Assembly: GCF_035084215.1 (NCBI RefSeq)
Contig: NC_090335.1
Span: 48,050,001 to 48,114,000 of the forward strand
Direction: 5' to 3'
From: Heptranchias perlo
Lineage: Eukaryota
DNA: 64,000 nt
Positions 1,105-59,956 of this stretch are shown in pieces. Positions within the stretch are counted from its first letter, which is position 1, and the number at the start of each line of letters is the position of its first letter. Under the pieces are notes generated by a model that ran no database searches, was not told the origin of the DNA, and saw nothing but the letters and a program-made list of their open reading frames with translations. Position numbers and translations under genes: made by a program.

Positions 1105-1904
1105 TCCTTAAAATCGGCCTGCAGGACCTCATTCCTCTTTCTACCTATGTCGTTGGTACTGATATGGACCACAACCTCTGGCTGCTCACCCTCCCCCTTC
1201 AGCATGTTCTGCAGCCGCTCAGTGACATCCTTGACCCTGGCACCAGGGAGGCAAAATACCATCCTGGAATCACGTCTGCGGCCGCAGAAACGCCTGTCTG
1301 TTCCCCTAACTATAGAATCCCTTATCACTATTGCTCTCCTGAGCTTTCTCCTCCCCCCGTACAGCCGAGCCACCCAAGGTGCTGTGGACTTGGCTCTGGC
1401 TGCACCCCTTGGAGCAACCATCGCCCTCTAACCAGTATTCAGAACTGAATACTGGTTAGAGAGCGAGGTGCCCTCAGGGGACTCCTGCACTACCTGCCTG
1501 CTCCTCCTTGCTTGTCTGGCGGTCACCCAGTCCCTCTCGACCAGCACGCTCTTAAGCTGTGGGTTAATCACCTTCTGAAATGTGCTATCCACGAAACTCT
1601 CAGCCTCGTGGATGCACTGCAGTGACGCCAGCTGTTGCTCAAGCTCCAAAACCATGAGCTCCTCCAGCTGACGACACTTCCTGCACCTGTGGCCGTCCAG
1701 GACATGGGAAGCATCCTGGAGTTCCCACATGGCACAGGATGTGCACTCGACGAGACGGAGGTGCCCTGCCACGCCTCGATTTATTAGATTAACTAACTTA
1801 CCAGAAATAAACTAACTACTTAGAAAAAACCATTCACCAGCTACTCACCAATCAGCTCCTTCCCTTGTGCTGACATCAGTTTAGGTGTTTTCTTTGTTTT
1901 TGTT

Positions 1905-2199
1905 TTGTATGCCTCTCACCGCTGCCCTCCAATCTCCGCTCTGCGCTCTATGCTCTCTGCTGCTCTCTGCTCTCCACTCTTGCCGCCGTCTTCCGTTCTC
2001 CGCTCTCCGCTCTCGCCGCCACTCTCTACTCTCCGTTCTCTGCTCTCCGCTCTCGCCGCCACTCTCTACTCACCGCTCTCTGCTCTTGCCGCCGCTCTCC
2101 GCTCTCTGCTCTCGCCGCCGCTCTCCGCTCTCTGCTATTGCCGCCGCTCTCTGCTCTCCGCTCTCGCCGCCGCTCTCTACTCTCCGCTCTCTGCTCTCT

Positions 2200-2261
<62 letters not shown>

Positions 2262-4475
2262 TACTCTCGCCGCCGCTCTCTGCTCTCTGCTCTCCGCTCT
2301 CCGCTCTCGCCGCCGCTCTCTACTCGCCGCTCTCTACTCTCCGCTCTCCACTCTCCGCTCTCCACTCTCCGCTCTCCACTCTCCGCTCTCCACTCTCCGC
2401 TCTCCACTCTCCGCTCTCCACTCTCCACTCTCCACTCTCCACTCTCTCCGCCGCTCTCTACTCTCCGCCGCTCTCTGCTCTCCGCTCTCTGCTCTCCGCT
2501 CTCACCGCCGCTCTCTACTCTCCGCTCTCTGCTCTCCGCTCTCCCCGCCACTCTCTACTCGCCGCTCTCCACTCTCCGCTCTCCACTCTCCGCTCTCCAC
2601 TCTCCACTCTCGCCGCCGCTCTCTACTCTCCGCTCTCGCCGCCGCTCTCTACTCGCCGCTCTCTACTCTCCGCTCTCCACTCTCCACTCTCCACTCTCCA
2701 CTCTCTCCGCCGCTCTCTACTCTCCGCTCTCTCCGCCGCTCTCTGCTCTCCGCTCTCTGCTCTCCGCTCTCACCGCCGCTCTCTACTCTCCGCTCTCTCC
2801 GCCGCTCTCTGCTCTCCGCTCTCTGCTCTCCGCTCTCACCGCCGCTCTCTGCTCTCCGCTCTCTGCTCTCCGCTCTCACCGCCGCTCTCTACTCGCCGCT
2901 CTCTACTCTCCGCTCTCCACTCTCCGCTCTCCACTCTCCGCTCTCCACTCTCCGCTCTCCACTCTCCACTCTCCACTCTCTCCGCCGCTCTCTACTCTCC
3001 GCTCTCTCCGCCGCTCTCTGCTCTCCGCTCTCTGCTCTCCGCTCTCACCGCCGCTCTCTACTCTCCGCTCTCTGCTCTCCGCTCTCCCCGCCACTCTCTA
3101 CTCTCCGCTCTCTACTCTCCGCTCTCTCCGCCGCTCTCTACTCTCCGTTCTCTGCTCTCCGCTCTCTACTCTCCGCTCTCTACTCTCCGCTCTCTCCGCC
3201 GCTCTCTACTCTCCGCTCTCTACTCTCCGCTCTCTACTCTCCGCTCTCTACTCTCGCCGCCGCTCTCTGCTCGCCGCTCTCTGCTCGCCGCTCTCCGCTC
3301 TCTACTCTCTACTCTCGCCGCCGCTCTCTACTCTCCGCTCTCTCCGCCACTCTCTGCTCTCCGCTCTCTGCTCTCCGCTCTCACCGCCGCTCTCTACTCT
3401 CCGCTCTCTGCTCCGCTCTCTGCTCTCCGCTCTCTGCTCTCCGCTCTCTGCTCTCCGCTCTCTACTCTCCGCTCTCTACTCTCCGCTCTCTACTCTCCGC
3501 TCTCTACTCTCCGCTCTCGCCTCTCCGCTCTCGCCTCTCCGCTCTCGCCTCTCCGCTCTCGCCTCTCCGCTCTCTGCTCTCCGCTCTCCGCTCTCTACTC
3601 TCCGCTCTCTACTCTCCGCTCTCCGCTCTCGCCGCCGCTCTCTGCTCTCGCCGCCGCTCTCCGCTCTCTGCTATTGCCGCCGCTCTCTGCTCTCCGCTCT
3701 CGGCTCTCTGCTCTCGCCGCCGCTCTCTGCTCTCCGCTCTCTGCTCTCCGCTATTGCCGCCGCTCTCTGCTCTCCGCTCTCGCCGCCGCTCTCTGCTCTC
3801 CGCTCTCTGCTCTCCGCTCTCTGCTCTCCCCGCCGCTCTCTGCTCTCCGCTCTCGCCGCCGCTCTCTGCTCTCCGCTCTCTGCTCTCCGCTCTCTGCTCT
3901 CCGCTCTCTGCTCTCCGCTCTCTGCTCTCCCCGCCGCTCTCTACTCTCCGCTCTCGCCGCCGCTCTCTGCTCTCTGCTATTGCCGCCGCTCTCTGCTCTC
4001 CGCTCTCTGCTCTCCGCTCTCCCCGCCGCTCTCTACTCTCCGCTCTCTGCTCTCGCTGCCGCTCTCTGCTATTGCCGCCGCTCTCTGCTCTCCGCTCTCT
4101 GCTCTCCCCGCCGCTCTCTACTCTCCGCTCTCTGCTCTCGCCGCCGCTCTCTGCTCTCCGCTCTCTGCTCTCCGCTATTGCCGCCGCTCTCTGCTCTCCG
4201 CTCTCTGCTCTCCCCGCCACTCTCTACTCTCCGCTCTCTGCTCTCGCCACCACTCTCTACTCTCCGCTCTCTGCTCTCTGCTCTCGCCGCCACTCTCTAC
4301 TCTCCGCTCTCGCCGCCACTCTCTACTCTCCGTTCTCTGGTCTTCGCTCTCGGCGCCACTCTCTACTCTCCGCGACTCTACTCTCCGCTCTCTGCTCTCA
4401 CCGCTCTCTGCTTTCGCCGCCGCTCTCTGCTCTCGCTGCCACTCTCTGCTCTCCGCTCTCTGCTCTCGCCTCTCT
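1905..4475. repeat. ~2.6-kb pyrimidine-rich compound tandem array (CTCTCCG/CTCTCTG/CTCTCTA/CTCTCCA/CTCTCGCCGCCG units)
   Basis: Directly visible; + strand almost purine-free apart from single G/A spacers. Confidence 0.97.
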
Positions 4476-4623
4476 TCATTGCCTGACAGATCATCTGTTA
4501 CATCATTTCACCAATGCCCCTCTGTTGTCTTTCCCCCCTCCATCTGCCCTGCTTTCTGATTCTTTTAAAATGCTTGTGCATCTTTCATTTTTCAGTTCTG
4601 AAGAAAGGCCTGGCCTGAAATAA

Positions 4624-23802: not shown

Positions 23803-24110
23803 GTTCGAAGTGACGTCAGGAATCAGATCGGGACGCGACACAGGGGAGGCACCTGATTGGTGAGTTGGTTCAGGTGAGTATTTCTCCTTATCTACAGTAA
23901 CTGAAGTAAAAGGAAAGGGAAGGTCTGCAGGTCTTATAGGAAGTAGCGTTTATTTTTTAGTGAATCAAGGTCCCTAGTGTAGTTAACATTCTCTAAATTG
24001 AGAACAATTTAAAGGAGTAAACTCCTTAAAGGGAGTGGTAAGTAGTTTTTCTTTCCTTTTTTTTTCTCTTGACATTGTAGTTGTTCTTAAGCTAATTTAA
24101 GGGTTAAGTC

Positions 24111-25058
24111 ATGGCAGGAGATCCCAGCGCCGTGTCATGTTCCTCTTGTGGGATGTGGGAATTCAGGGCTCCTTCCTGTATCCCTGATTCCTTCACCTGC
24201 GGGAAGTGTGTCCAGCTGCAGCTATTGTTTGACCGCTTGACGGCTCTGGAGCTGCGGATGGACTCACTTTGGAGCATCCGCGATGCTGAGAAAGTCGTGG
24301 ATAGCACGTTCAGTGAGTTGGTCACACCGCAGATAAAAATTACTGAGGGAGATAGTGAATGGGTGACCAACAGACAGAGGAAGAGTAGGAAGGCAGTGCA
24401 GGGGTCCCCTGCGGTCATCTCCCTCCAAAACAGGTATACCGTTTTGGATACTGTTGGCGGAGATGGCTCACCAGGGGAAGGTGGCAGTGGCCAGGTTCAT
24501 GGCACCGTGGCTGGCTCTGCTGCACAGGAGGGCAGGAAAAAGAGTGGCAGAGCTATAGTGATAGGGGACTCGATTGTAAGGGGAATAGACAGGCGTTTCT
24601 GCGGACGCAACCGAGACTCCAGGATGGTATGTTGCCTCCCTGGTGCAAGGGTCAAGGATGTCTCGGAGCGGCTGCAGCACATTCTGGAGGGGGAGGGTGA
24701 ACAGCCAGTTGTCGTGGTGCATATAGGTACCAACGATATAGGTAAAAAACAGGATGAGGTCCTACAAGCTGAATTTAGGGAGTTAGGAGTTAAACTAAAG
24801 AGTAGGACCTCAAAGGTAGTAATCTCAGGATTGCTACCAGTGCCACGGGTTAGTCAGAGTAGGAATGACAGGATAGCTAAGATGAATACGTGGCTTGAGA
24901 GATGGTGCAAGCTGGAGGGATTCAAATTCCTGGGCCATTCGAACCGGTTCTGGGGGAGGTGGGACCAGTACAAATTGGACGGTCTGCATCTGGGCAGGAC
25001 TGGAACCAATGTCCTAGGGGGAGTGTTTGCCAGTGCTGTTGGGGAGGGTTTAAACTAA
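24111..25058 (+). CDS. CR1 ORF1p: zinc finger/leucine zipper + SGNH esterase, 315 aa
   Basis: CSSC...CGKC, heptad leucines, VIGDS, PGA, GTND and DGLH blocks. Confidence 0.95.
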   Translation: MAGDPSAVSCSSCGMWEFRAPSCIPDSFTCGKCVQLQLLFDRLTALELRMDSLWSIRDAEKVVDSTFSELVTPQIKITEGDSEWVTNRQRKSRKAVQGSPAVISLQNRYTVLDTVGGDGSPGEGGSGQVHGTVAGSAAQEGRKKSGRAIVIGDSIVRGIDRRFCGRNRDSRMVCCLPGARVKDVSERLQHILEGEGEQPVVVVHIGTNDIGKKQDEVLQAEFRELGVKLKSRTSKVVISGLLPVPRVSQSRNDRIAKMNTWLERWCKLEGFKFLGHSNRFWGRWDQYKLDGLHLGRTGTNVLGGVFASAVGEGLN

Positions 25059-28006
25059 TGTGGCAGGGGGATGGGAACCGATGCAGGAAGTCAGTGGGAA
25101 ATAAAGTGGTGACAGAAACAAAAGGCAGTAAGGGAGAGTGTACAGAACATGACCGGACAGATGGTCTGAGAAAGCAGGGCAAAGACCAAGGGAAGTCTAG
25201 ATTAAACTGCATTTATTTCAATGCAAGAAGTCTGATGGGCAAGGCAGATGAACTCAGGGCATGGATGGGTACATGGGACTGGGATGTTATAGCTATTACT
25301 GAAACATGGCTAAGGGAGGGGCAGGACTGGCAGCTCAATGTTCCAGGGTACAGATGCTATAGGAAAGATAGAGCAGGAGGTAAGAGAGGAGGGGGAGTTG
25401 CGTTCTTGATTAGGGAGAACATCACGGCAGTAGTGAGAGGGGATATATCCGAGGGTTCGCCCACTGAGTCCATATGGGTAGAACTGAAAAATAAGAAGGG
25501 AGAGATCACTTTGATAGGATTGTACTACAGACCCCCAAATAGTCAACGGGAAATTGAGGAGCAAATATGTAAGGAGATTACAGACAGCTGCAAGAAAAAT
25601 AGGGTGGTAATAGTAGGGGACTTTAACTTTCCCAACATTGACTGGGACAGCCATAGCATTAGGGGCTTGGATGGAGAGAAATTTGTTGAGTGTATTCAGG
25701 AGGAATTTCTCATTCAGTATGTGGCTGGCCCGACTAGAGAGGGGGCAAAACTTGACCTCCTCTTGGGAAATAAGGAAGGGCAGGTGACAGAAGTGTTAGT
25801 GAGGGATCACTTTGGGACCAGTGATCATAATTCCATTAGTTTTAAGATAGCTATGGAGAAGGATAGGTCTGGCCCAAAAGTTAAAATTCTAAATTGGGGA
25901 AAGGCCAATTTTGATGGTATTAGACAGGAACTTTCAGAAGTTGATTGGGAGAGTCTGTTGGCAGGCAAAGGGACGTCTGGTAAGTGGGAGGCTTTCAAAA
26001 GTGTGTTAACCAGGGTTCAGGGTAAGCACATTCCTTATAAAGTGAAGGGCAAGGCTGGTAGAAGTAGGGAACCTTGGATGACTCGGGAGATTGAGGCACT
26101 AGTCAAAAATAAGAAGGAGGCATATGACATGCATAGGCAGCTGGGATCAAGTGGATCCCTTGAAGAGTATAGAGATTGCCGGAGTAGAGTTAAGAGAGAA
26201 ATCAGGAGGGCAAAAAGGGGATATGAGATTGCTTTGGCAGATCAGGCAAAGGTGAATCCAAAGAGCTTCTACAAATACATAAAGGGCAAAAGGGTAACTA
26301 GGGAGAGAGTAGGGCCTCTTAAGGATCAACAAGGTCATCTATGTGCGGAACCACAAGAAATGGGTGAGATCCTGAATGAATATTTCACATCGGTATTTAC
26401 GGTTGAGAAAGGCATGGATGTTAGGGAACTTGGGGAAATAAATAGTGATGTCTTGAGGAGTGTACATATTACAGAGAGGGAGGTGCTGGAAGTCTTAACG
26501 CGCATCAAGGTAGATAAATCTCCGGGACCTGATGAAATGTATCCCAGGACGTTATGGGAGGTTAGGGAGGAAATTGCGGGTCCCCTAGCAGAGATATTTG
26601 AATCATCCACCGCTACAGGTGAGGTGCCTGAAGATTGGAGGGTAGCAAATGTTGTGCCTTTGTTTAAGAAGGGCGGCAGGGAAAAGCCTGGGAACTATAG
26701 ACCAGTGAGCCTGACATCTGTAGTGGGTAAGTTTTTAGAGGGTATTCTGAGGGACAGAATCTACAGGCATTTGGAGAGGCAGGGACTAATTAGGAACAGT
26801 CAGCATGGTTTTGTGAGAGGAAAATCATGTCTCACGAATTTGATTGAGTTTTTTGAAGGGGTAACCAAGAAGATAGATGAGGGCTGTGCAGTAGACGTGG
26901 TCTACATGGACTTCAGCAAAGCATTTGACAAGGTACCGCATGGTAGGTTGTTACATAAGGTTAAATCTCATGGGATCCAAGGTGAGGTAGCCAATTGGAT
27001 ACAAAATTGGCTTGACGACAGAAGACAGAGGGTGGTTGTCGAGGGTTGTTTTTCAAACTGGATGCCTGTGTCCAGCGGTGTGCCTCAGGGATCGGTGCTG
27101 GGTCCGCTGTTATTTGTTATTTATATTAATGATTTGGATGAGAATTTAGGAGGCATGGTTAGTAAGTTTGCAGATGACACCAAGATTGGTGGCATTGTGG
27201 ACAGTGAAGAAGGTTATCTAGGATTGCAACTGGATCTTGATAAATTGGGCCAGTGGGCCGATGAATGGCAGATGGAGTTTAATTTAGATAAATGTGAGGT
27301 GATGCATTTTGGTAGATCGAATCGGGCCAGGACCTACTCCGTTAATGGTAGGGCGTTGGGGAGAGTTATAGAACAAAGAGATCTAGGAGTACAGATTCAT
27401 AGCTCCTTGAAAGTGGAGTCACAGGTGGATAGGGTGGTGAAGAAGGCATTCAGCATGCTTGGTTTCATTGGTCAGAACATTGAATGCAGGAGTTGGGATG
27501 TCTTGTTGAAGTTGTACAGGGCATTGGTGAGGCCACACTTGGAGTACTGTGTACAGTTCTGGTCACCCTATTATAGAAAGGATATTATTAAACTAGAAAG
27601 AGTGCAGAAAAGATTTACTAGGATGCTACCGGGACTTGATGGTTTGACTTACAGGGAGAGGTTAGACAGACTGGGACTTTATTCCCTGGAGAGTAGGAGA
27701 TTAAGGGGTGATCTTATAGAAGTCTATAAAATAATGAGGGGCATAGATAAGGTCGATAGTCAAAATCTTTTCCCAAAGGTAGGGGAGTCTATAACGAGGG
27801 GGCACAGATTTAAGGTGAGAGGGGAGAGATACAAAAGGATCCAGAGGGGCAATTTTTTCACTCAAAGGGTGGTGAGTGTCTGGAACGAGCTGCCAGAGGC
27901 AGTAGTAGAGGCGGGTACAATTTTGTCTTTTAAAAAGCATTTGGACAGTTACATGGGGAAGATGGGTATCGAGGGATATGGGCCAAGTGCAGGCAATTGG
28001 GACTAG
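25058..28006 (+). CDS. CR1 ORF2p: AP endonuclease + reverse transcriptase (start uncertain)
   Basis: YFNARS, ITETWL, YRPP, GDFN, SDH; [23 protein letters not shown]; open to TAG 28004-28006; -1 frame relative to ORF1. Confidence 0.95.
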   Translation: MWQGDGNRCRKSVGNKVVTETKGSKGECTEHDRTDGLRKQGKDQGKSRLNCIYFNARSLMGKADELRAWMGTWDWDVIAITETWLREGQDWQLNVPGYRCYRKDRAGGKRGGGVAFLIRENITAVVRGDISEGSPTESIWVELKNKKGEITLIGLYYRPPNSQREIEEQICKEITDSCKKNRVVIVGDFNFPNIDWDSHSIRGLDGEKFVECIQEEFLIQYVAGPTREGAKLDLLLGNKEGQVTEVLVRDHFGTSDHNSISFKIAMEKDRSGPKVKILNWGKANFDGIRQELSEVDWESLLAGKGTSGKWEAFKSVLTRVQGKHIPYKVKGKAGRSREPWMTREIEALVKNKKEAYDMHRQLGSSGSLEEYRDCRSRVKREIRRAKRGYEIALADQAKVNPKSFYKYIKGKRVTRERVGPLKDQQGHLCAEPQEMGEILNEYFTSVFTVEKGMDVRELGEINSDVLRSVHITEREVLEVLTRIKVDKSPGPDEMYPRTLWEVREEIAGPLAEIFESSTATGEVPEDWRVANVVPLFKKGGREKPGNYRPVSLTSVVGKFLEGILRDRIYRHLERQGLIRNSQHGFVRGKSCLTNLIEFFEGVTKKIDEGCAVDVVYMDFSKAFDKVPHGRLLHKVKSHGIQGEVANWIQNWLDDRRQRVVVEGCFSNWMPVSSGVPQGSVLGPLLFVIYINDLDENLGGMVSKFADDTKIGGIVDSEEGYLGLQLDLDKLGQWADEWQMEFNLDKCEVMHFGRSNRARTYSVNGRALGRVIEQRDLGVQIHSSLKVESQVDRVVKKAFSMLGFIGQNIECRSWDVLLKLYRALVRPHLEYCVQFWSPYYRKDIIKLERVQKRFTRMLPGLDGLTYRERLDRLGLYSLESRRLRGDLIEVYKIMRGIDKVDSQNLFPKVGESITRGHRFKVRGERYKRIQRGNFFTQRVVSVWNELPEAVVEAGTILSFKKHLDSYMGKMGIEGYGPSAGNWD

Positions 28007-35660: not shown

Positions 35661-36348
35661 ATTAGTGCAGAAAGAGGCTATTCGGTCCATAGTGTCCGTG
35701 CTGCCTCTTAGCAAGAGTCGTACGCTGCCCCGCTCTGTCCTTATAACCTGTTTCTTCCTCTGCTTCAAATATTTATCCAACTTTTCCTTGAAAGATGCAA
35801 TCACTCCCTGTGGCAAAGCATTCCATGCTCCAACAGCCCCTTGTATAAAGAAATTTCTCCTACTCTCTGTCCTCATTCTCTTAGTGGCCATTTTAAATTG
35901 ATTACCCCTCATCACTGACTCTCCTATTCACTTTATTAAAACCCAAATCATTTTAAAAACCTCTATTAAATCTCCTCATAGCCTTTTCTGCTCCAGTGGA
36001 AATAGTCCCATTATCATTCCTTTGATCAAGTCAAATAGAGAACTCCTTGCCAATAATTATCCCGTTCGTATTATGTCAAGGATAAGAATGGCAATTTTGT
36101 CAAGGTCGGTCAATGCCTTGGTCCTCCATTGTCAGCAGATTTCAGGATATAGTTGGAAATGCTCTTCCAACACTCAGAAAGTCATAGAAAGTTCAAAAAA
36201 GAAACTGACTTCACAAAGAGTAAACTACGTTTCTGAGGGCAACTTTAACAAAAGGAAATGACTTCTAATATCAAACAGGAACTGAAGCAACTGCTTTGGT
36301 GCAGCAAGAAGGTCTGTTCCTTAACATCAGCGTTACCGATGAAGCACG

Positions 36349-36379
36349 ATGATTGCTACATTGCTCCTGTTTTCAGTCT
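36349..36379 (+). CDS. Leader exon of V-J Ig-superfamily gene
   Basis: MIATLLLFSV then T|GTAAGT, phase 1; in-frame TGA upstream; GGAA (ETS-like) motifs near 36254 and 36278. Confidence 0.75.
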
Positions 36380-36516
36380 GTAAGTATATCGATTCTATAT
36401 ATAAGTAATGTATAATTAATCTTATTTTAATATTATGACAGGTTTAATATAGCATGGCACTTGTGTTAAAACATTTTGAATATCTTTAAAACTTTAATGA
36501 GTCTGTATTATAATAG

Positions 36517-36864
36517 GTGTTGCCACCAGATTGGAGCTGCTACAATATCCCATCTCGCTCCGGCTGCAGGAAAGCCAGTCTGCCCATTTCCACTGCATTC
36601 TACAATACGAAGGCAAGGTAGTAAACGGCAATTTTTATTGGCATTATGTTAAAGTGAACTTTGGTGAAATCCAAATGAGCAATATCAGTATCAAGCCAGA
36701 AGATGATCGTATCAATATGTCCAGTGCAACTGATTGCAACAACTCGTTGATAATTAAGGATCTTCACATAACTGACACGGGTGTGTATTATTGCAACATC
36801 ATTATTCACGAAGCTTCACTTTCGAGGAAGATCACGGGCACTGGGACTCATCTAATTGTTCAAG
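36517..36864 (+). CDS. Ig V-set exon with J-like G strand (germline-joined VJ)
   Basis: taatag| ...QYP...AHFHC...FYW...SLIIKDLHITDTGVYYC...ITGTGTHLIVQ G|gtaagg; phase 1-1. Confidence 0.92.
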
Positions 36865-37814
36865 GTAAGGGAGATTTGCCTTCATGGGATTCCATGTAGT
36901 TTTAGTTAGGCATTAGATAAGGGGGCATGTGTTGTCGGACCCCGTTTGCAACTTTCAAGTACAAATGGCATGGTGTGCGCTCTGCCTCTTAGTACCAGAC
37001 AGTGAGTGGCTTAACCATTGGTCCTTAAAGGGCTCACTGGAGGCTGCTCCAAAAATGACCTGGAACATTTTTGGGGGCGAATCTTTGCAGGCCAGGAGTA
37101 GTAGGAATGCTCCTCCTGATCCCACAACAATACTACAACCTGCTGACGGCTTCCAGGTTCCCGTCACCCCCTCCCCCCACACCTTTTAGTATCAATTTGA
37201 CTATTCCATTCTGCAGTAGTACTTCCTCCCATCCTGACATAACTCCTCGAGCAAGGTCTTGTTATTTTGTACCCTTCAGTCATTTTTTATCCATTCCTAG
37301 AGTTTATCCTGAATCTCTATAGCTTTGAATCTTAACTAATAGACTTTTGTATGGAACTGCCAAATAGGTAACTATGTAACCAAATATAAACAGCTATGGT
37401 AATGGTGAGAGCATTAAGATCTGTGAAATGTATATAACTATCAAGGCATGTTAGTACTTTTATGAAATTATTTTATTGTTGTGTATTCACTGATTTGTTA
37501 CTTTTGGGAATGTCTACAACATTAAAACATAATGAAACAATGACAGCAGGTCATTTGGGTCAAGTGACCTATTCCTTTAACTGAACTGTAAGCGATCACA
37601 AGATAGTTGCAGATACGGAAGGCCATTTGGCCCATCTTAGTTCGTCCATACAGAATGATCCTAACATCACCCCATTGCAGCATCTAATTGTTTCTTCAAA
37701 GATTCTACGGTTCTTGCCTCCAATACTTTTCTGGAATTCCATTCCATACGTTGATCATTCTGTGTAAAGAAGAATTTCCTGACCAGTTATAAATTTACTT
37801 TTTAGTGTTTGAAT

Positions 37815-38578
37815 CTATGTGCCCTTAAATCTGTGTCCTCTGGTTCCGACCCTTCTGCCACCAGAAATAGTTTCTCCTTATTTACTCTATCAAAACTGTT
37901 CATGATCTTGGACACCTCTATCAAATTTCCTCCTAACCTTCTCTGCTCTAAGGAGAACAACCCCAGCTTCTCCAGACTCTCTACATAACTGAAGTCCCTC
38001 ATCCTTGGTACCATTCTAGTGAATCTCTTTTGCACCCCCTCTAAAGCTTTGACATCCTTCCTAAAGTGTGGTGCCCAAAATTGAACACAATACTCCAGCT
38101 GGTGCCTAACCAGTGTTTTATAAAAGTTTAGCATAACTTCCTTGCTTTTGTACTCTATGCCTCTGATAATAAACCACAGGGTCCTATATGCTTTTTTATC
38201 AGCCTTGTCAACCTGTCCTGCCACCTTCAAAGATTTGTGTACTTACACCCCCAGGTCTCTCTGTTCCTGTACCCATTTTAAAATTGTACCATTTAGTTTA
38301 TATTGCCTCTCCTCATTCTTCTTACCAAAATGTATCACTTCACACTTCTCTGCGTTAATTTTTTTCTGCCACGAGTCTGCCCATATCACCAGTCCGCCTG
38401 TATCCTCCTGAAGTGTGTTACTATCCTTCACGTCATTTAATACATGCCCCGAGTTTTGTGTCATCTGCAAACTTTGAGATTGTTCCCTGTACACCCAAGT
38501 CCAGATCATTAATATATGTCAAAAAGAGCAATGGTCCTAATACCGACCCCTGGGGAACACCACTGTATACTTCCCTCT
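37815..38578 (-). mobile_element. CR1 RT fragment in VJ gene intron
   Basis: Minus ORFs with LEYCVQFW and KCEVIHFG. Confidence 0.9.
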
Positions 38579-39080
38579 ATCATCTACAAGTTTGACCACT
38601 TTGCATTGAGTATCCAAATTCAAGTATTTTATGTAAATTAGAAACAGTAGTGTTCGCACCGCTGAACCCTGGGACACCCCATTCAGTGTTCCCCCCCAAC
38701 CTGACATCACTCCTCTAACAGGATATTGTTTTCTACCCTAAATCCAATTTTTTCATCCATTTCTAGGGTTTACTCTAAATGTCACAAAACTTGGCAAAGC
38801 CCCTCTCCCTAAGCTGCACTGTGATCCAGCTGAAACTTATTTTTTACCATTCCTGTAAAATCAATACTTCGGTCTTATGTTGAGTATTTGTTGAATGAAT
38901 AAATTGCTTTATTTTTTAGATGTAACATTATCAGGTCACATTTTTTTCTGTATATATTATTTATATACTGGTGATTACCACAACAATGAAGTTGAAATCC
39001 TGGCAATTATCAAACTTGTCAAATATTTGTTGCTGAAAGTTTGTTTCTGAATAATTAACTTTCTTAAATCTTTCTTACAG

Positions 39081-39110
39081 ATATTTTTCGCAAGTATGCT
39101 TTGCTTGAAA
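39081..39110 (+). CDS. Candidate 30-nt stalk exon of the VJ gene
   Basis: Strong acceptor tctttcttacag|, DIFRKYALLE, donor |gtaggt, phase 1-1. Confidence 0.45.
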
Positions 39111-39599
39111 GTAGGTGCATTATATTTTTTATTTAGTTTGCATTTCCCCTTAGCAGTTAACTCTGTAGATTTCTATTATCTATAAGTCTCATAATAAATA
39201 ATGCGGTGGATGGAAATTTCAGAACTGAGATTGGGCAGGAATATTAGAGATGGGAAGGGACAAGGAGCACGCGCAGATTTGGAAATGAAGGATCACAGAT
39301 GCAAAACAGACAGCAGTGGGGAAAATGGCCTCACCGACAGATTACACATAATTTGAAAATTGTAGTTAAATTGTCAACAACGATTAATTGTTTTTTCGTG
39401 TTTACTTAGTGAGATATCACTCCTAGAAAAAATAACGTATGAAGACCTGTAATCTTGTGGTGGACCTATAAACCCCTCCCATTTCACATAGAGCAAATTA
39501 CTGCAGTCTGAACTAACTACAGATTGTCATTCTTCTCAAGTTTGTTCCAAATTATTACACCAGCAGACTTATATTTTATCCAATGTGGTTATATTGCAG

Positions 39600-39697
39600 A
39601 TTACAGGGCCATTCTGAATAAGCTCATGTCAATCATCCGCTATGTTTTGTTTGTTCTGCTCATGAGTTACTTCATATACGTTGAGAAATTCTACTGA
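39600..39697 (+). CDS. Transmembrane/terminal exon of the VJ gene
   Basis: attgcag| xYRAILNKLMSIIRYVLFVLLMSYFIYVEKFY* in phase 1; donor AAG|GTATGT at 39711 after the stop. Confidence 0.65.
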
Positions 39698-39849
39698 TCC
39701 TGAAATAAAGGTATGTAAATGCATCATATTCAAAATGATGCCTCACACATTCAGGGGTTTTCACTCCTTTGTGCTAATTCATTTTAGTAACAAGTTATAG
39801 AACCTCTTTTCCCTATTTGAGGAAAAGACTGAAACAGGTCCTTTTTAAT

Positions 39850-43040: not shown

Positions 43041-45104
43041 TTTGTATTTGATTTCTTCAATGTCCTTCTTACTAGCTTCCTATTCTTCACCCTCTATAAA
43101 CTCAGCTGTCTGTATCCTATCCTGAAGTAAGTCCTGCTCACCCACCTCCCCCCTTCCTCACAGGCCCACATTGGTTCCCTGGCCCCAAAACACTTACCTA
43201 TTGTATATTAAAAATGATGCATGTTGGCAACATTCATCTGACGTTGTGTCTGTACGTGGCGCTGTGAGTGTAACCTTATTCTGCTTAACATTATGTGACC
43301 GTGAATCGACTGAACAAAAACCCTTTATGCCTAAGCAAACTGCAGTAACTAAAAATCACCATTTGGTGACACAGCAGTGCATTTACAGACAAATGGCAAA
43401 CATCTCAGCAAAAGCACGTAAAGAAAAGGTAAATATAACTCAATGTCCAGCCCACAGTGTAGAAAGTAAGGCTAAAGGAGAAATAATGAAGGTGAATATT
43501 GAATACAGGGGCATTGTCACCTGAAGCAGGTCTCCAGAAACAGAGAACTGGGGTAATGCGAAGAAATGGAATTGCATGGCAAAAGTAGAGATGGAACAGC
43601 AAAGTAATGGATCAAAAACTGTGCACAGATGCTCACCGGTAAGCAATAGCACCATATGCAGAAAAACCCGAAATCGCGTTCAAACAAAGAACGACACCCA
43701 CCCATCACTGAGCAGCTTTGTGACAACTAGAACCCCCACTTCCCCTCGCTGAGCAGATTTTGGATAATTGGCTCCCACCATGAACCGTCTTTCAATAACT
43801 GGAACCCCTTCCTCCACACTAAGCAGATTTTACCCCTGCCCTCTCTGATCCTTTTCCTCCTCGCTCTCTTCTTTGCTCCTTCCTCTCCTTTCCTCCACTC
43901 CACCTCCTCACTCCTCGTTCTTCTCATCTCTTCTCTCCTCACTCTCTCCCTGTTCTTCCTCTGCCCTGCCATCTGCCACATCCTCCCTTGCCATTCTTGG
44001 TCCAATTCAATTATCCCTTGCCCTCTAACACTGCTTGACCTGAATAGTGCCCTTGGTCTTGACTGCCCATGTGCAACGTCACTGGAGATTGATTAGTTAT
44101 GTATTAAAAATGGGAGCTAGATCACAGAATTCTGTGCAAAGAAAGAAAAAAGGACTTGCATGCATATAACGCCTTTCAGGATGTTGCATTTCGCAGCCAA
44201 TGAAGCACTTTTGAAGCGTGTGCAGTGCCTATTATATCTGTAGATGGTGCTATGATAGTTCTTAATAGGTCATATAGCTTAAATACCAATGAGCACTATC
44301 TGCTTATCCACACTGTGTATTTGCTTGTGGATGTGCAATACTGCACTCTCACCACTAGAAGGCGCTGCAACAACAATGTTTTCTTAGAGCAAAAGCTGAG
44401 TAAAAGTCAGATCTGTAAATTTGTTTGTAAGATGCACACTATATTTCTTTATACAACAGTGAGATTTAGCTTCCATTAAGGTCAAATCTCCTGAGGCATG
44501 TTCCTCCCAACCTGCTCAGTATTTTTTGCCCCACCCCCTCCACTGAGAAAAAAATCGGACCTCACCAGAACCCCCCCCCCCCCCGCCACTGTGAGATCAA
44601 AATCAAGCCTCACAACCCCTACTACCGAGAGCAAAATCGAGCCTCATCAGCAACTCCCCCCCAAACTGACAGCAAAAATCATCTTCCCTCTTCTCCTCCT
44701 CTCCATATCCCATCCTCTCCCTTCCTCTTCCTCGCTCCCCAACATGGGCCCAATTATTCCCCCAATCATTAACTCTATTTGACCTAAATATTACCCTTGA
44801 TCTTGATTCCCCATGTACAATGCCATAGGAAATCAACTGGTTGAATTTAAAATCCTCATCCTCACCTTCCAATCCCTGCACAGTCTTGCCCAGCCTACCT
44901 CTGCAACCTCCTCTAGCCTTACATCCTCTCCTGCACTCTTTGGCCTTCTGTGCTTCCCTTCATCCACCATTGGCGGCAGAGCCTTCAGCTGCCTTGGCCT
45001 TACTCTCTGGAATTTTCCCACTAATCCCTTTCATTTCTCTATTTCTCTTTCCACCTTTAAAAGCCTTCATGTAAACCTATATTTTTGATGAAGCTTTTGG
45101 CCAT

Positions 45105-47497: not shown

Positions 47498-50387
47498 TTG
47501 TGTTTAGAGAACACAAACCGTGCCCAAAGGTACATCTTATACCCAAGATTGTACAGTAGGTAGAAGTAGAGTAAATAATTTATTGTGATTGAATAAGTCA
47601 AATTCTGTTTCTATTGCATGGAATAGAAACAGAAGCATAGGTTGCTCTGGAATTTTTAACAATGTTTTTGAGATCATATTCTGTAATCCCGTTAACTTTT
47701 CTGTGAAAACTGCAAATCAGTGACCGAAGTTACAAGTGACCAAAAAGTGCTAGTTTTAAGATGGTTCCTGCTCAAATCTGATTTCATTAGAAATTAAAAC
47801 TGCAGTGCTTTCTTTTTAAGGGCCCCGGCTCGAGGCAAATGGCATCATCTCTGGAGCATTCACAAGAGGAAGGCTGTTTCTAAGCTGTTTTATGTCTACA
47901 TTATTGCTCTTGCTTACAGCAGACTGTTCTTTATTAACCATCTAAGGAAATCAGTACTCTTGATTTTATATACAATGAAAATTAAAATGTTTTTAAAATG
48001 TTGGTGACAAGTTCCAAACTTGGGGAAACGAGTCTGGTAAACATGTTAATGAAAGATGATGTCTATCAGTATATCTAATAGTATAATTACATTACACATT
48101 AATATTGTGGGCACAACTTATATAAAAACTCATTTGATTTGGATTGGTATTGCTAATTAAATTTGGTGCTTTGTACTTATACTAATTGTGAATAATTGTT
48201 TGTGAAGTCTGAGAGAACTTTTTCATTATGTTTGTTAATTAAACCATATTTATCCATTATAATTTTACCAAACAAACCTACAGCCAAATTAAAACATTTG
48301 CCATATTTTTTTGTTACCCGTGCAAAATTATTGATAAAACATTAAATGGAGATTTTACTACGATTTACAACCCAAGGACTCAATACCCTAATAATTAATG
48401 AGTGAACTGTGGGCAGTATTGTGAGTGGGAAATGCATCAAATCGCATGGATCCTCATAATGTTTATACCCTGGTATTGCTTTCAATCAGGACACAGGTAG
48501 AAGTACTATACTTGGGTCAGCACTCCTCGAGAGGAGAATGTTAACCAATATTCCCACTCCTGATTGCTACCTATTCACCCCTGCTGAAAATGTGTAAGGA
48601 CAGGATCAGGCTCGGTTCTGGTCTCTTTCCTCCACAATCGAATAGCCTACAACTAACAGTCACAAAGGAAACAACAGACAAAAGGGAAGAAAAGCTTCAA
48701 CAAAGGGAAACAGAATACAAGGAAATTTATCAGAAAGTAGCACAAGGCCAAAAGGAACTAATACAAAGTGAAGAAGAATTAGTACAGATAGAGAAACAGT
48801 ATGCCAATCTGACCCAAAGACTTTAACAGAAAGAGAAAAGGGGCAAAGATCCCTCTTCAGCACTCAGCAATAAGAGCTTGGCAGGGCAGAAGCACTTATT
48901 GCAAATTTGGACACAAGCTGCTCATAATTTTCAGTCTGTTAATTTTAAGAGATAGAAAATTCTGGATAACTTGTGCCCAGATTTGCAATATGCACTTCTA
49001 TTCTACCGAGCTTTGAAGAGGAAACTCTGCCCCTCAGTGTGCAAGTTTGACTAATGCAGTTCCATATACAGAGAGAACTGAAACTTGTTAATATCACGCA
49101 GAACTTATGGCAAATAGATGTAGAATCCAGTGAAACACTGGAAGAAATTGAGAGTCTGAGATGTCAACTGAGACAAAGGCGAATGCAGTTCTGGATTTAT
49201 GGAGACCGGAAGTAAGTTTACAGTTGACAAAAAGAAAAGAAAGCTAGAAACAGTTACTAGATGACTATAACACCTATAAGTGTAGAACCAAGGTATCTGA
49301 TTCCAGAATAAAGAGTGTAATACACGAGGAAAGATGATTAGCAATCTGAACCAGGAACTGGCAGTCACTAAGTACAGCTAATTGTCGCCATCAGAGGGAA
49401 CAAGTGTATAAAGAGCTAGAAATCAAAAATGCCCAAGTAGAATAGGCACTGAAACAGGCTGAGAGTGTATCTAATGAAGGGGGGAAAGGAGAGTATCCAA
49501 TGGAGTTAGTGCTTGGCAAATGTATCTTGCTGTAGGGAGACCTAGATTAGTGGAGAGAGATCTGTCCCAGTTCAAAAGGGATGAATTTGAATCTGCTGTA
49601 CCCACTACTTATAGTGAGCCAGGACATTGGAATAAACGAGTACAGATCTGAAAAGGCTTATATTAAACACCCTTCCAAAGGGAAATTAACACCTCCTAGA
49701 GGTAGGAGTTACTGAACCTACAGGACAGAATTAAAGGTGCTGGCTCCTGCCAGATGGAGAGCTACAATGCCAGCAGCACAGAACCAAGGAACTCTATTTT
49801 TGCGTGTTTAATGGTTTTTAACTTCCATCTAGATCATCTAAGTCTTGTGTCTACAGAAAATCAGGCTTTGTTGCTATTCTTCACAGTGCTGCAGTTTTAC
49901 ATATGGATAGAAAAGAATCATGGTAAGGGAAGATCATTGGAGTGCAGCATGAGTTATTTAAAAAGAGAATATAGGATAGGTGAGGCCACTAGGAGATGTG
50001 TTCAAATTATGAAGGATTTTGATAGAATAAATAAGAAGAAACTCTTTCCAATGGCAGGAGGGTGGGTAACCAAAGGAGACAGATATAAGACAATTGGCAA
50101 AAGAAAAATAGAGGGGATATGAGGAGAATTTTTCGTATGAAATAAGTTGCTATAATCTAGAATACACTGCCTGAAAGAGTGATGGAAGCAGGTTAAATAG
50201 TAACTTTCAAAGGGGAATTGGATAAATGCTTGAAGTTAGTGGAAATAGAAATGGGGAGAGATGTAAAACGGGCTGCCGCCTCCCTATCACCCGTTTTACA
50301 TTATCGCATCTTCCCCACTAAGCGGGGAATTGCTAAACCTGGTAAAATTTCAACTCCGATCCACTTGAATTAGGCCATAACCATATT

Positions 50388-52997: not shown

Positions 52998-53708
52998 ATC
53001 ATAGAATCATAAAAAGGTTACAGCATGGAAGGAGGCCATTCGGCCCATCGAGTCTGTGCCAGCTCTATGCAAGAGCAATCCAGCTAGTCCCACTCCTCCG
53101 CCCTATCCCTGTAGCCCTGCAATTTTTTTCCTTTCAAGTATTTATCCAGTTCCCTTTTGAAGGCTACAATTGAATCTGCCTCCACCACCCCCTTGGGTAG
53201 TGCATTCCAGATCCCAGCCACTCGCTGTGTAAAAAAGTTTTTCCTCATGTCACCTTTGGTTCTATTGCCTATCACCTTAAATCTATGTCCTCTGGTTCTT
53301 GATCTTTCTCTCAATTGGAACAGTTTCTCTCTATCTACTTTGTCTAGACCCTTCATGATTTTGAATACCTCTATTAAATCTCCTCTCAACCTTCTCTGTT
53401 CCGAGGAGAACAACCCCAGCTTCTCCAGTCTATCCACATAACTAAAATTCCTCATCCCAGGAATCATTCCAGTAAATCTCTTCTGCACCCTCTCTAAGGC
53501 CTTCACATCTTTCTTAAAGTGCAGTGCCCAGAACTGGATGCAATACTCCAGCCGTGACCGAACCAGTGTTTTATAAAGGTTTATCATGACTCCTTTGCTT
53601 TTGTACTCTATGCCTCTATTTATAAAGCCCAGGATCCGGTATGCTTTTTTAACTGCTTTCTCATCCTGCCCTGCCACCTGCAACGATTTGTGTACATATA
53701 CCCCCCAG
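52998..53708 (-). mobile_element. CR1 3' fragment (continues at 57072-57152)
   Basis: Minus ORF 53084-53708 (LEYCIQFW, RGHRFK); resumes TCTCTCTGTTCCTG at 57072. Confidence 0.9.
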
Positions 53709-56700
53709 GGCATTCTCAAGGGGGAGGGTGAGCAGGCAGAGGTCGTGGTCCACATTGGGACCAACGACATAGGTAGGAAGGGAGATGAGGTCCTGCATCA
53801 AGAATTTAGGGAGCTAGGTAGCAGATTAAAGAGCAGGACCTCAAAGGTTGTAATCTCTGGATTACTCCCAATGCCACGGGCTAGTGAGTATAGAAATAGG
53901 AGGATAGAACAGATGAATGCGTGGCTAAAGAGTTGGTGCAGGAGGGAGGGTTTCAGTTTCCTGGATCACTGGGCCTGCTTCTGGGGAAGGTGGGACTTGT
54001 ACAAGTCGGACGGGTTGCACCTGAACCAGAGAGGGACAAATATCCTTGCGGGGAGGTTTGCTAGCACTGTTGGGGGGGTTTAAACTAACTTGGCAGGGGG
54101 ATGGGATACAGAGTGGAGCTACAATAGGGGGTGATGTGCAGCCAAATATAGAGAAAAAAACAAGTCAGCTTGGAAGACAGGGCAAATATGTGAGGGCAAG
54201 GCTGGATGGCATCTATTTTAATGCAAGGAGTCTTGCGAATAAGGTGGATGAACTGAAGGTGTTGATAAACACATGGGAGTATGATATTGTTGCTGTCACA
54301 GAGACATGGTTGAGGGAGGGTCAAGACTGGCAGCTCAATATTCCGGGTTACAGAATCTTCAGGCGAGACAGAGGGGGAGGTATAAGAGGAGGGGGGGTCG
54401 CAATATTAATTAAAGAATCAATTACTGCCATAAGGAGGGATGATATATTAGCAGGTTCCTCTAATGAGGCCATATGGGTGGAGCTTAAAAACAAAAAGGG
54501 GGCAAGCACTTTGATGGGAGTGTACTATAGGCCCCCAAACAGTCAGGGGGAGATCGAGGAACAGATATGTAGGCAAATCTCAGAAAATTGTGCAAATAAT
54601 AGGGTAATAATCGTGGGGGATTTCAACTTCCCCAATATTAACTGGGATACTCAGAGTGTAAAAGGCTTAGAGGGTACAAAATTCTTAACGTGCATCCAGG
54701 AGAGCTTTTTGAGCCAGCATGTAGAAAGTCCTACAAGAGAGGGGGCGGTACTGGACCTAATTCTAGGGAATGTGGCCGGCCAAGTGGAAGAAGTGCTAGT
54801 AGGTGAGCACTTTGGTGAGAGTGACCATAATTCGGTGAGATTTAAGGTGGTCATGGAAAAGGACAGGGAGGGGCCGGAAATAAAGGTTCTAAATTGGGGG
54901 AAGGCCGATTTTAATAGGATAAGACAGGATCTGGCCAAAATGGACTGGGATCAGCTGCTTGTAGGAAAATCAGCATCGGAGCAATGGGAGTCTTTCAGAA
55001 GGGAGATTGAGACCATACAATGGCAACATGTTCCCGTAAAGGTCAAGGGTGGTTCCAAGAACTCCAGGGAACCTTGGATGTCAGGGGATATACGAGAATG
55101 GATTAGGAAAAAAAGGAGGGCTTTTGGCAGATACAAAAGGCTAAAGACGGAGGAAGCCCTAGAGGAGTACAAAAAGTGCAGGGGGATACTTAAAAAAGAA
55201 ATTAGGAGATCAAGGAGGGGCCATGAAATAACACTGGCGAGCAAAATAAAGGAAAATCCTAAGATGTTTTATAAGTATATTAAGGGTAAGAGGATGACTA
55301 GGGAAAAAATAGGGCCCATTAGGGACAAAAATGGCAATCTGTGTGTGGAGCCGGCAGATGTAGGAGGGGTTCTAAATGAATTTTTTGCATCTGTTTTCAC
55401 TATGGAGAAGGACGATGTAGACATAGAAATACGGCAGGGGGACTGTGATATACTCGAACATATTAACATCGAGCGGGAGGAGGTATTGGCGGTTTTAGCA
55501 GGCCTAAAAATGGATAAATCCCCAGGCCCGGACGAAATGTATCCCAGGCTACTGCGTGAGGCAAAGGAGGAGATTGCGGGGGCTCTTACACATATATTCA
55601 GAACCTCTCTGGCCACAGGGGATGTGCCAGAGGACTGGAGAACCGCTAATGTAATACCATTATTCAAGAAGGGGAGTAGGGAAAAACCGGGGAACTACAG
55701 GCCAGTGAGCCTAACATCAGTGGTAGGAAAATTATTGGAAAAAATTCTGAAGGACAAAATTAGTCTCCACTTGGAGAAGCAAGGATTAATCAGGGATAGT
55801 CAACATGGCTTTGTCAAGGGAAGATCATGTCTGACTAATTTGATTGAATTTTTTGAGGGGGTGACTAGGTGTGTGGATGAGGGTAACGCAGTGGATGTGG
55901 TATACATGGATTTCAGTAAGGCCTTCGATAAAGTCCCCCACAGGAGACTGGTCAAGAAGGTACGAGCCCATGGAATCCAGGGTGCCTTGGCACTTTGGAT
56001 ACAAAACTGGCTTAGTGGCAGAAGGCAGAGGGTGATGGTCGAAGGTTGTTTTTGTGACTGGAAGCCTGTGGCCAGTGGGGTACCACAGGGATCGGTGCTG
56101 GGTCCCTTGCTGTTTGTGGTCTACATTAATGACTTGGATATGAATGTAAAAGGTATGATCAGTAAGTTCGCTGATGATACAAAAATTGGTAGGGTGGTAA
56201 ATAGCGAGGAGGATAGCCTCAGTCTGCAGGACGATATAGATGGGTTGGTCAGATGGGCGGAACAGTGGCAAATGGAATTTAACCCGGAAAAGTGCGAGGT
56301 GATGCACTTTGGAGGGACTAACAAGGCAAGGGAATACACAATGAATGGGAGGACCCTAGGCAAGACAGAGGGTCAGAGGGATCTTGGTGTGCAAGTTCAC
56401 AGATCCCTGAAGGCGGCGGAACAGGTAGATAAGGTGGTAACGAAGGCATATGGGATACTTGCCTTTATTAGCCGAGGCATAGAATATAAGAGCAAGGAGG
56501 TTATGATGGAGCTGTATAAAACACTGGTTAGGCCACAGCTGGAGTACTGTGTGCAGTTCTGGTCGCCACACTACAGGAAGGATGTGATCGCTTTGGAGAG
56601 GGTGCAGAGGAGATTCACCAGGATGTTACCAGGGCTGGAGCGCTTCAGCTATGAAGAGAGACTGGGAAGATTGGAGCAGAGGAGGCTGAGGGGGGACATG

Positions 56701-57071
56701 ATTGAGGTGTACAAAATTATGAGGGGCACAGATAGGATGGATACTAAGGAGCTTTTTCCCTTCGTTGAGGGTTCTATAACAAGGGGACATAGATTGAAGG
56801 TAAAAGGCGGGAGGTTTAGAGGGGATTTGAGAAAGAACTTTTTCACCCAGAGGGTGGTTGGAGTCTGGAACTCACTGCCTGAAAGGGTTGTGGAGGCAGG
56901 AACCCTCACAACATTCAAGAAGCATTTGGATGAGCACTTGAAATGTCATAGCATACAAGGCTACGGACCAAATGCTGGAATATGGGATTAGAGTAGACAG
57001 GGCTGATGGCCGGCGTGGACACGATGGGCCGAAGGGCCTCTATCCGTGCTGTATAAAAAGAAAAGAAAGAA
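53709..57071 (+). mobile_element. Young CR1, truncated within ORF1, with open ORF2 (about 54079-56991)
   Basis: ORF1 esterase half (GTND, DGLH), full EN and RT motifs; 15-nt in-frame deletion (GLFSL-type segment missing) near 56670. Confidence 0.95.
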
Positions 57072-58891: not shown

Positions 58892-59677
58892 CTGAAATAA
58901 CGGATTTCAATTTACGCAATAGTACATTAATCCCTAGCACTAATGAGCCAATTTTGCAATGTTTAACCTCCTTATGCAAAGATTCTACACGTGGACAGAT
59001 TACTTTAACCGTCAGCTCTTTTCAACATGCAGGGAATATTTTGCAATTGAGGATGAATTAATTTCTACTTAATAAACAAGTTAGATTGTAGCCCGCTGTG
59101 TCTAAGTGACCTGTGCTTATTCCAGCAATTTAATTTCAATATAAAGCGTCAAAAACGATGGAACCCAGTAAATATAAATGTGTTTAAATCGTTGGGGGTG
59201 TCCAGGTAAGGGCCGGAATAGTTCCCTAAAATAATGCATTTTAGCGGAGGTCTTAATAGATTTGTTCAAAAGAAATCCCCGAGTGAGGCATTTCACCTGA
59301 GTAGAAAAATGCGCCGCTTCAAGTGGTTTACATCGCAGCGATTGACGGGTTTAAAGTGGGACAAGAAAAGTATTCACCCTGGGTGGGGGGAAACATTTTA
59401 TAAATAAGGATATATATGGGAATGAGGAGGGTAACGAAGATTTTCCACCTGTCTTGATCAGACCCGAGGCTTCGACGAACCTGCTTTAATTTGTTATTGC
59501 AGCAATTCACGTTTTGTTTCGTTTCGTGTATTAATCCTACGACCCAGCATCAAATTTCACCAGAGATTATGATTTTATACAAACAATAAGAAATTATTGT
59601 CGAATAAAATGTAGTTTCATTTCCATGCAGTAACTGGGAGCAGCGAGCTGTGAGATTTATTTCCTTTGTAAACTTAC

Positions 59678-59956
59678 CTGCGCTGTGATTGATCCTTTTC
59701 CTCATTGACCCCATGACTATAACGTATTGTACCTGACAGGTTCCCTGGTCGCAGTGAGTGTCTCTAACCCGCAGGTTGTAGGTGCCGTCACTGTTTACTG
59801 TCGGGGAGCCCTGTTCTGTTCGATAGGAGACAGCTCCCGCCACAATCCAAGAAATGTTCAGATCTCCAGGGTAAAATCCCACAGCCACACAAATCAGATC
59901 CTGAATCCCAACAACTTCATTCTCTGGATCCGCAGAGAGCGCAATTTCAGAGTCAA
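59678..59956 (-). CDS. Ig C1-set domain exon (5' exons probably beyond the window; possibly pseudogene)
   Basis: tttttatcctctag| ...LICVAVGFYPGDLNISW...PTVNSDGTYNL...TCQV... CAG|GTAAGT; 279 nt, phase 1-1, open. Confidence 0.85.

Follow-up and report, generated by a model that had tools for sequence, protein, structure and literature searches.

A spliced, single-copy VJ gene encoding a putative activating receptor in the shark Heptranchias perlo

To our knowledge, few activating receptors of the NK type are known in sharks. In a stretch of 64,000 nucleotides of Heptranchias perlo DNA, here called the window, the initial annotation described a non-rearranging VJ receptor of about 160–170 amino acids with a charged transmembrane (TM) segment and almost no tail, next to TRIM45, that it could not assign to a named gene. 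This raises the question of whether such a gene exists and, if so, where its V domain belongs and what the protein might do. Our literature search returned no description of the gene; Fu 2019 (on PRARP), Ohta 2019 and Flajnik 2023 (J Immunol) may already cover the locus. The supplement of PMC10751288 had no match for TRIM45, VTCN1, IGSF3 or PRARP, and the consulted part of PMC12227049, which deals with UrIg2, does not mention the locus. The same part of that paper presents non-rearranging VJ genes as the sought relatives of the gene that was split by the RAG transposon (PMC12227049), and the consulted text of PMC11599192 counts CD79, NITR, SIRP, CD8, NKp30 and PRARP among the joined-VJ genes.

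Exons and transcripts

The gene is real and is spliced, in four exons on the plus strand whose boundaries agree with those proposed in the initial annotation. Exon 1 (36314–36379 (+)) comprises the 5' UTR and, from the ATG at 36349, the leader, and ends in a phase-1 donor; its 5' end is the start of the longest contig. Exon 2 (36517–36864 (+)) encodes the end of the leader and a germline-joined VJ domain, as judged by a V-set match, the contigs and the predicted structure. Exon 3 (39081–39110 (+)) has 30 nt and supplies a stalk of 10 residues, and exon 4 (39600–39710 (+), 111 nt) encodes the TM helix and a four-residue tail, with the stop codon at 39695–39697. All four exons have GT..AG ends and share one open frame, 507 nt long with the stop counted, giving a protein of 168 amino acids, within the proposed size range. 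Another ATG, 10 nt 5' of the start codon, is weak and out of frame.

Transcript support came from Logan contigs of four public runs, all from one sample, whose status as RNA is the tool's guess, none being recorded as RNA. The three joints, each GT..AG, were 36379>36517 (three of the four runs; the short side is 66 letters in run X1), 36864>39081 (all four runs) and 39110>39600 (three runs), and the V exon matched the contigs with 0 mismatches. The first two of these junctions and a departure after 39710 had been predicted, and all were seen. The stalk had been called optional. Its existence was confirmed, the exon being entered in four of four runs, left in three of four, and present wherever a listed joint spans it, and 39600 was reached from 39110. 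Skipping was not borne out: no V-to-TM joint was found among the joints listed, which leave out 20 others and come from contigs that drop rare forms.

The contigs depart from the genome at 39710/39711, where the donor sits 13 nt after the stop, and extend by another 291 (X1) and 392 (X2) letters, so that a further untranslated exon must lie beyond 40450, the end of the compared stretch, as the proposed donor after the stop had implied. The candidate for this exon (43164–43555 (+)), a predicted exon only, begins at the strongest non-repeat acceptor downstream (pyrimidine fraction 0.95, top of six candidates), and its end was set from the longest contig overhang. By the usual 50-nt rule, a stop near the last junction escapes decay; with its stop 13 nt before the junction, this transcript would escape if just one exon follows.

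The gene is single-copy. Its own genome contains a single match for the TM exon and no other V match above 34% identity, and an intronless copy is therefore an unlikely origin of the joined contigs. Splicing of the V exon to a C1 exon at 59.7–59.96 kb was also considered and was ruled out, that exon being on the minus strand and broken.

The VJ domain, its orthologues and its predicted fold

Exon 2 matches the Pfam V-set domain with an E value of 3.4e-8, and both cysteines, the tryptophan, the DxGxYYC motif and a G-x-G-T J-like end all lie within this one exon. In the J-like motif a Thr takes the place of the Phe or Trp of antigen receptors, and 13 residues separate the motif from the second cysteine. 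A tolerant scan (at most one heptamer and two nonamer mismatches) found no RSS-like sites in the 64 kb window, and the VJ exon is spliced as encoded, without rearrangement, just as the description of a non-rearranging VJ gene required. The exon also encodes three N-glycosylation sequons and one extra cysteine without counterpart in the two orthologues.

The TM arginine, residue 150, is encoded at 39638–39640 (+) and is the sixth residue of a 20-residue hydrophobic stretch, in which 14 hydrophobic residues follow it before an acidic residue. The most hydrophobic 19-residue windows have modest values of 1.92–1.94, leaving the limits of the helix uncertain. The TM exon had no match in the PDB. 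A register match with the shark NKp30 TM segment, made by eye, failed against shuffled sequences.

The gene is conserved in three sharks, and its TM segment and tail in two. The Mustelus asterias orthologue (LOC144506486, labelled "uncharacterized") has 171 amino acids and is 62% identical over the V domain; the build is the same, the stalk is of similar length, and the TM arginine and the position of the stop are kept. The TM exon is 69% identical over 29 amino acids, above the 62% of the V domain. Neither species with a full model has a C domain or a stalk cysteine. The initial annotation was thus right about a charged TM segment with a four-residue tail, and its arginine is kept in Mustelus; the lysine before the TM core, which it had read as another functional charge, is replaced by Asn in Mustelus, leaving the arginine as the only conserved one. 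The Chiloscyllium plagiosum model is 55% identical over V, and its C-terminus looks mis-predicted, with no TM segment visible; the arginine is therefore seen in two species only. Its automatic name, "CD8 beta chain-like", was rejected as an identity: CD8 beta has a long stalk with Cys, an uncharged TM segment and a cytoplasmic tail, whereas this protein has a 10-residue, Cys-free stalk, a TM arginine and a four-residue tail (the trees described below held no named CD8 sequence).

A HMMER scan of 1.84 billion representatives gave 71 matches overall, with the two orthologues at 137 and 123 bits. Among the other single-stretch matches, nurse shark NKp30 came first with 38.5 bits; the remaining strong rows were multi-domain Ig proteins. 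No orthologue from a ray, chimaera or bony fish was found in the searches, which covered predicted proteins and are not proof of absence, and a search of the ESM Atlas gave generic V-set clusters only. The two shark orthologues bear automatic names only, and by sequence the gene matches no named gene found, consistent with the lack of an assignment in the initial annotation.

An AlphaFold2 model of the V domain reached a pLDDT of 91.7 from a 26-row alignment, compared with only 40.5 from a 3-row alignment. In the model a C' strand is present, and at the C'' position no strand is assigned. The top match in a fold search was a single-domain shark/skate VNAR (Z 16.0, rmsd 1.6, 102 residues aligned), effectively tied with the next matches at Z 15.3 and 15.0, within one Z unit, and the closest folds were VNAR, TCR V and CD79b. 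NKp30 was absent among the fold-search matches listed, which does not exclude it. The Phe/Trp of the J strand and the Gln of the C strand serve V–V pairing in other V domains, and the alignment shows neither in this one. Together with the fold matches, this suggests that the modelled V domain may work alone rather than as half of a V–V pair.

Predicted coupling to a signalling adaptor

Since no signalling motif was found in the 168-residue protein, any signal must go via a partner. The reading we favour, and consider fairly probable by analogy, is that of an activating immune receptor of the NKp30 type, in which the TM arginine would bind a dimer of zeta or FcR-gamma. Only 14 hydrophobic residues follow the arginine, too few to span the membrane, a count that probably places it within the membrane, close to the top of the TM segment. 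There it would pair with both Asp residues of the dimeric adaptor, a pairing that would also be required for surface display; ligand binding would then lead to ITAM phosphorylation on the adaptor, and the expressing cells would be NK-like or T lymphocytes. A TM exon of the zeta/FcR-gamma family (PF11628), with Cys and Asp, lies on the same contig as the gene, C11, 4.2 Mb away. According to the consulted part of PMC13107469, the binding of TCR-alpha and CD89 to dimers of zeta or FcR-gamma depends on an Arg close to the top of the TM segment and on two Asp, and NKp30 and NKp46 are assumed there to use the same Arg-type binding.

Nurse shark NKp30 (QTT61904.1, 170 amino acids) and human NKp30 (NCR3) resemble the protein: each has a single germline VJ domain on a short stalk, a basic residue close to the top of the TM segment, little or no tail and a length of about 170 amino acids. 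The present protein differs from them in sequence (32–34% identity), in its longer CDR3-like loop, in its separate stalk exon and untranslated last exon, and in its locus, which is between TRIM45- and VTCN1-like genes on C11 rather than in the NKp30-like cluster of the same genome on C42 (three V exons, along with two TM exons that carry Lys). Among the points against the favoured reading are that shark NKp30 has Lys at the place corresponding to the arginine and that the likeness of the TM segments is marginal: two of eight pairs reached p ≈ 0.03 against full shuffles, none of them with Mustelus, and unrelated TM segments scored equally well.

A B7-family protein is the likeliest class of ligand by analogy, given that human NKp30 binds a B7-family member, B7-H6, as the consulted part of PMC3135353 describes. 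The receptor of another member, B7-H4, is termed poorly understood in a 2026 abstract (PMC13588502, consulted in part).

Locus, descent and alternative readings

Along 464 kb of C11, the genes come in this order: a multi-V Ig gene, presumably IGSF3-like; two partial leader-VJ-C1 copies, which are on the minus strand; a TRIM45-type gene; the gene described here; a broken copy of C1; a V exon of the B7 family; and a VJ-C1-TM gene that is complete (P0077). The TRIM45-type gene has RING, B-box, coiled-coil and filamin domains and fits the neighbour named in the initial annotation, its name resting on this domain set and on that annotation. The B7-family V exon, ≈40 kb downstream, has VTCN1/B7-H4 as its best single-domain PDB match (75.6 bits). 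VJ-C1 genes stand on both sides, outside the 64 kb window; the complete one, 53 kb away, has several ITIM/ITSM-like Tyr motifs, and its family we take to be PRARP-type, the PRARP family of Fu et al. 2019 reportedly having a C1 domain and an ITIM/ITSM tail. Of the two genes, only this neighbour has the C1 domain and the ITIM/ITSM tail, the contigs of our gene running from VJ to stalk to TM and then into untranslated sequence; our gene differs from it also in its charged TM segment. The locus presumably matches human 1p13, part of an MHC paralogon. A paper on a 1p12-p13.3 deletion mentions IGSF3, TRIM45 and VTCN1, all three, in the part consulted (PMC9394163).

Two trees were made to place the V domain, one of 45 V domains (98 columns) and one of 34 non-rearranging V domains that extended through the J strand and dropped 11 rows as rearranging or distant (116 columns). 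The H. perlo rows are a sample, 24 picked by hand from the loci of 150 V-set matches; the labels TCR-alpha, IgL and VH were recognised from sequence and RSS and are not database names, and the trees contained no named PRARP, UrIg, CD8, CD79, SIRP or NITR. The three orthologues formed one clade (99/99 and 100/97), which grouped with the VJ-C1 family, the frog protein P0012 and a CD28H-like domain (95/91 and 94/90). P0012, the row nearest to the orthologues, is itself a member of the VJ-C1 family (E 7e-27 to P0077). The NKp30 domains formed a group of their own (98/95 in the first tree) that excluded the orthologues in both trees; in the first tree it was sister only at 83/75.

The AU test rejected a clade of the orthologues with TCR-like V (p 0.004) or Ig V domains (p 0.006), and on this sequence evidence the gene is not a stray TCR or Ig segment. 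Not rejected were a clade with NKp30 (p 0.30), nesting inside NKp30 (p 0.13), a clade with VJ-C1 (p 0.22–0.23) and a clade of VJ-C1 and frog without our gene (p 0.40). In pairwise scores against 42 V domains from outside the family, shark NKp30 took the top three places (115, 106 and 104), with TCR-like domains at 43–58 and Ig domains at 35–58, whereas a profile comparison gave a slight edge to VJ-C1 (100.9 versus 91.3 for NKp30). PDB sequence searches mostly placed TCR-alpha chains first, with low scores, and human NKp30 was absent among the 33 and 60 PDB matches listed. Taken together, the trees, AU tests and mixed scores suggest a lineage of its own in the neighbourhood of NKp30, VJ-C1 and CD28H. 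The comparison with profiles and trees that the initial annotation had called for thus sets the domain apart from TCR V, and it neither backs nor rejects a kinship with NCR3; judged by sequence, the gene is not to be filed as NCR3 or PRARP, and the data cannot choose between NKp30 and VJ-C1 kinship.

A kinship with VJ-C1 would suit the idea that the gene supplies the activating side of a paired-receptor system, as a sibling of the ITIM-like VJ-C1-TM neighbour that has neither C1 domain nor tail and recognises the same or a related ligand. Such a pairing, which would add to the zeta/gamma-coupled activating reading and not replace it, is conceivable, if on balance not likely. In addition to the grouping in the trees, with frog P0012 as the nearest row, it draws on the complete VJ-C1 gene and the two partial copies at the same locus, on the Mustelus orthologues of both genes (each on a contig of 91,901,885 bases), on the equal distance of 13 residues from the second Cys to the J motif in two non-rearranging VJ exons, and on the TM exons, both of phase 1-1 and similar in size (111 and 108 nt). 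The V domains, however, are just 27% identical, whereas classical paired receptors have near-identical ectodomains; moreover, the TM segments align no better than shuffles (p 0.4–0.9), and the AU test does not reject the tree of VJ-C1 and frog without our gene.

Alternatively, the gene might be a diverged duplicate of NKp30, or its paralogue from a whole-genome duplication, that binds B7-H6 or a relative, which we hold to be rather unlikely. The top pairwise scores, the same build, a common sequon position and shared residues around the tryptophan fit such an origin, and the AU test rejects neither a clade of the gene with NKp30 nor its nesting within NKp30. Against this, the genome already holds three NKp30-like V exons on C42, the identity is low, and the well-supported NKp30 group leaves the gene out. 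UrIg and UrIg2, whose sequences were outside the trees, are also shark genes with a non-rearranging VJ exon and a split leader; unlike our gene, they have 3–11 C1 domains, are dimers joined by disulfide bonds and are located in the MHC or the antigen-receptor complex, as described in the consulted part of PMC12227049. The CD28 family, with CD28H and its paralogues, likewise has one V domain whose G strand contains GxG, and a CD28H-like domain groups with our gene in the trees; the family differs in its Pro-rich CDR3 motif and cytoplasmic Tyr motif, both missing here (PMC11599192, consulted in part).

If the favoured reading of a zeta/gamma-coupled activating receptor is true, the gene would represent a second NKp30-like activating lineage outside the NKp30 cluster, beside a VJ-C1 gene of inhibitory type and a B7-H4-like gene. 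It would offer a marker to seek in single-cell data from sharks, and a few receptor–adaptor and receptor–ligand pairs open to testing; it overturns nothing, the build being known from NKp30 and the family having been found in three sharks only.

The protein is unlikely to be a decoy, ligand or adhesion molecule that does not signal and whose arginine just sits at the outer limit of the membrane segment. The missing tail, the modest hydrophobicity and the uncertain helix limits would all suit it, as would the expression of UrIg and UrIg2 in liver and gill, not in lymphocytes (PMC12227049, consulted in part), but the hydrophobic run after the arginine is too short to span the membrane and the TM exon is better conserved than the V domain.

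Improbable, too, is a chain of a non-rearranging heterodimer, or a pre-TCR-like surrogate chain, whose arginine would recruit zeta while a partner gave the constant domain or tail. TCR-alpha, with which the initial annotation had compared the gene, does recruit zeta through an Arg, has a VJ-type domain and a short tail, heads the PDB sequence searches, and has a last exon that is untranslated, as here. Our gene, in contrast, has no rearrangement, RSS, C domain, stalk Cys, conserved central Lys or V–V pairing residues, and the comparison is weakened by the AU test, which rejects TCR-like V as a clade partner; Ig V fares no better.

It is very doubtful that our gene and the VJ-C1 ITIM gene form an intact activating/inhibitory VJ pair of the pre-RAG type that flanks its own ligand gene, B7-H4, on the chromosome-1 MHC paralogue. 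A predicted complex between our V domain and the VTCN1-like one (score 0.01, mark 0.34) bears neither way. Coupling to DAP12 or DAP10 rather than to zeta or gamma has very little probability: NKG2D uses an Arg for DAP10 and the H. perlo protein does have a lysine, but DAP12-type assembly relies on a central Lys (PMC13107469, consulted in part), whereas the lysine here lies at the outer edge and is replaced in Mustelus.

Elsewhere in the window, open reading frames at 48.5–49.4 kb and 57.3–58.1 kb matched no Pfam family above the cut-off. Those at 33.5–34.1 kb were set aside as a dispersed repeat, all 40 of the 40 scored copies being at 91–93% identity or the sequence itself.

NKp30-like exons and the candidate last exon

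Read in the phase set by the TM-exon donor, the candidate last exon of the NKp30-like VJ receptor gene gives a frame of 34 codons that includes an ITIM-like motif (window 43164–43265, + strand). The motif arises in 1.6% of shuffles. Because two stops come ahead of this frame, and because the exon itself is only a candidate, the frame may be a chance occurrence or the relic of a tail. On another contig of the H. perlo genome (G000), C42, three NKp30-like V exons form a cluster at 5835700–5868200 (loci L099–L104), and two of the three have TM exons carrying a Lys and a tail of ≈20 residues.

Complete and partial VJ-C1 genes

A complete non-rearranging VJ-C1-TM gene, encoding protein P0077, lies on the + strand of C11, the contig that includes the window, at 48142719–48152288 (loci L006, L009 and L010). 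The gene has several ITIM/ITSM-like motifs, and the P0077 tail gave a weak match to Pfam DUF4578 (E = 2e-4, below cut-off), the human C1orf162 family. An annotated isoform, P0076, is without the TM exon. Relatives of the gene are kept in sharks, one sawfish and one frog, under automatic names that are Ig kappa-like or SIRP-like.

Two leader-VJ-C1 copies, 95–98% identical, were located on the minus strand of C11 at 48033377–48035040 and 48042651–48044308 (loci L005, L027 and L028). No TM or tail exon was found for them in 464 kb of C11, and they are partial duplicates, secreted forms or pseudogenes. A broken C1 exon with internal deletions (window 59676–59954, − strand) matches the C1 of the VJ-C1 genes at 83% identity; no V exon was found beside it.

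Other V-exon groups and window features

On C11 at 54159594–54369106 (loci L004, L080 and L128), a CD28H-like VJ exon carrying an EIPPP loop lies 48 kb from a B7-like V exon. Together with one more V exon there, the two possibly constitute another receptor–ligand neighbourhood on the same contig as the target gene. Contig C8 holds an array of germline-joined VJ exons at 1245978–1945355 (loci L048, L050, L055, L056, L060, L063, L074 and L076), in paired arrangement and with very short CDR3-like loops.

Within the window, coiled-coil-like frames at 48545–49200 (+ strand), with no Pfam match above cut-off, are broken up by a 150-bp dispersed element whose flanks there are nearly single-copy. Two near-complete LINE copies, recognised from sequence as CR1-type, both lie on the + strand, with ORF2 open for 1035 codons (24108–28006) and 988 codons (53577–56991). 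A long C/T-rich tandem repeat at 1824–4623 (GC skew −0.6) contains low-complexity frames of 870–912 codons.
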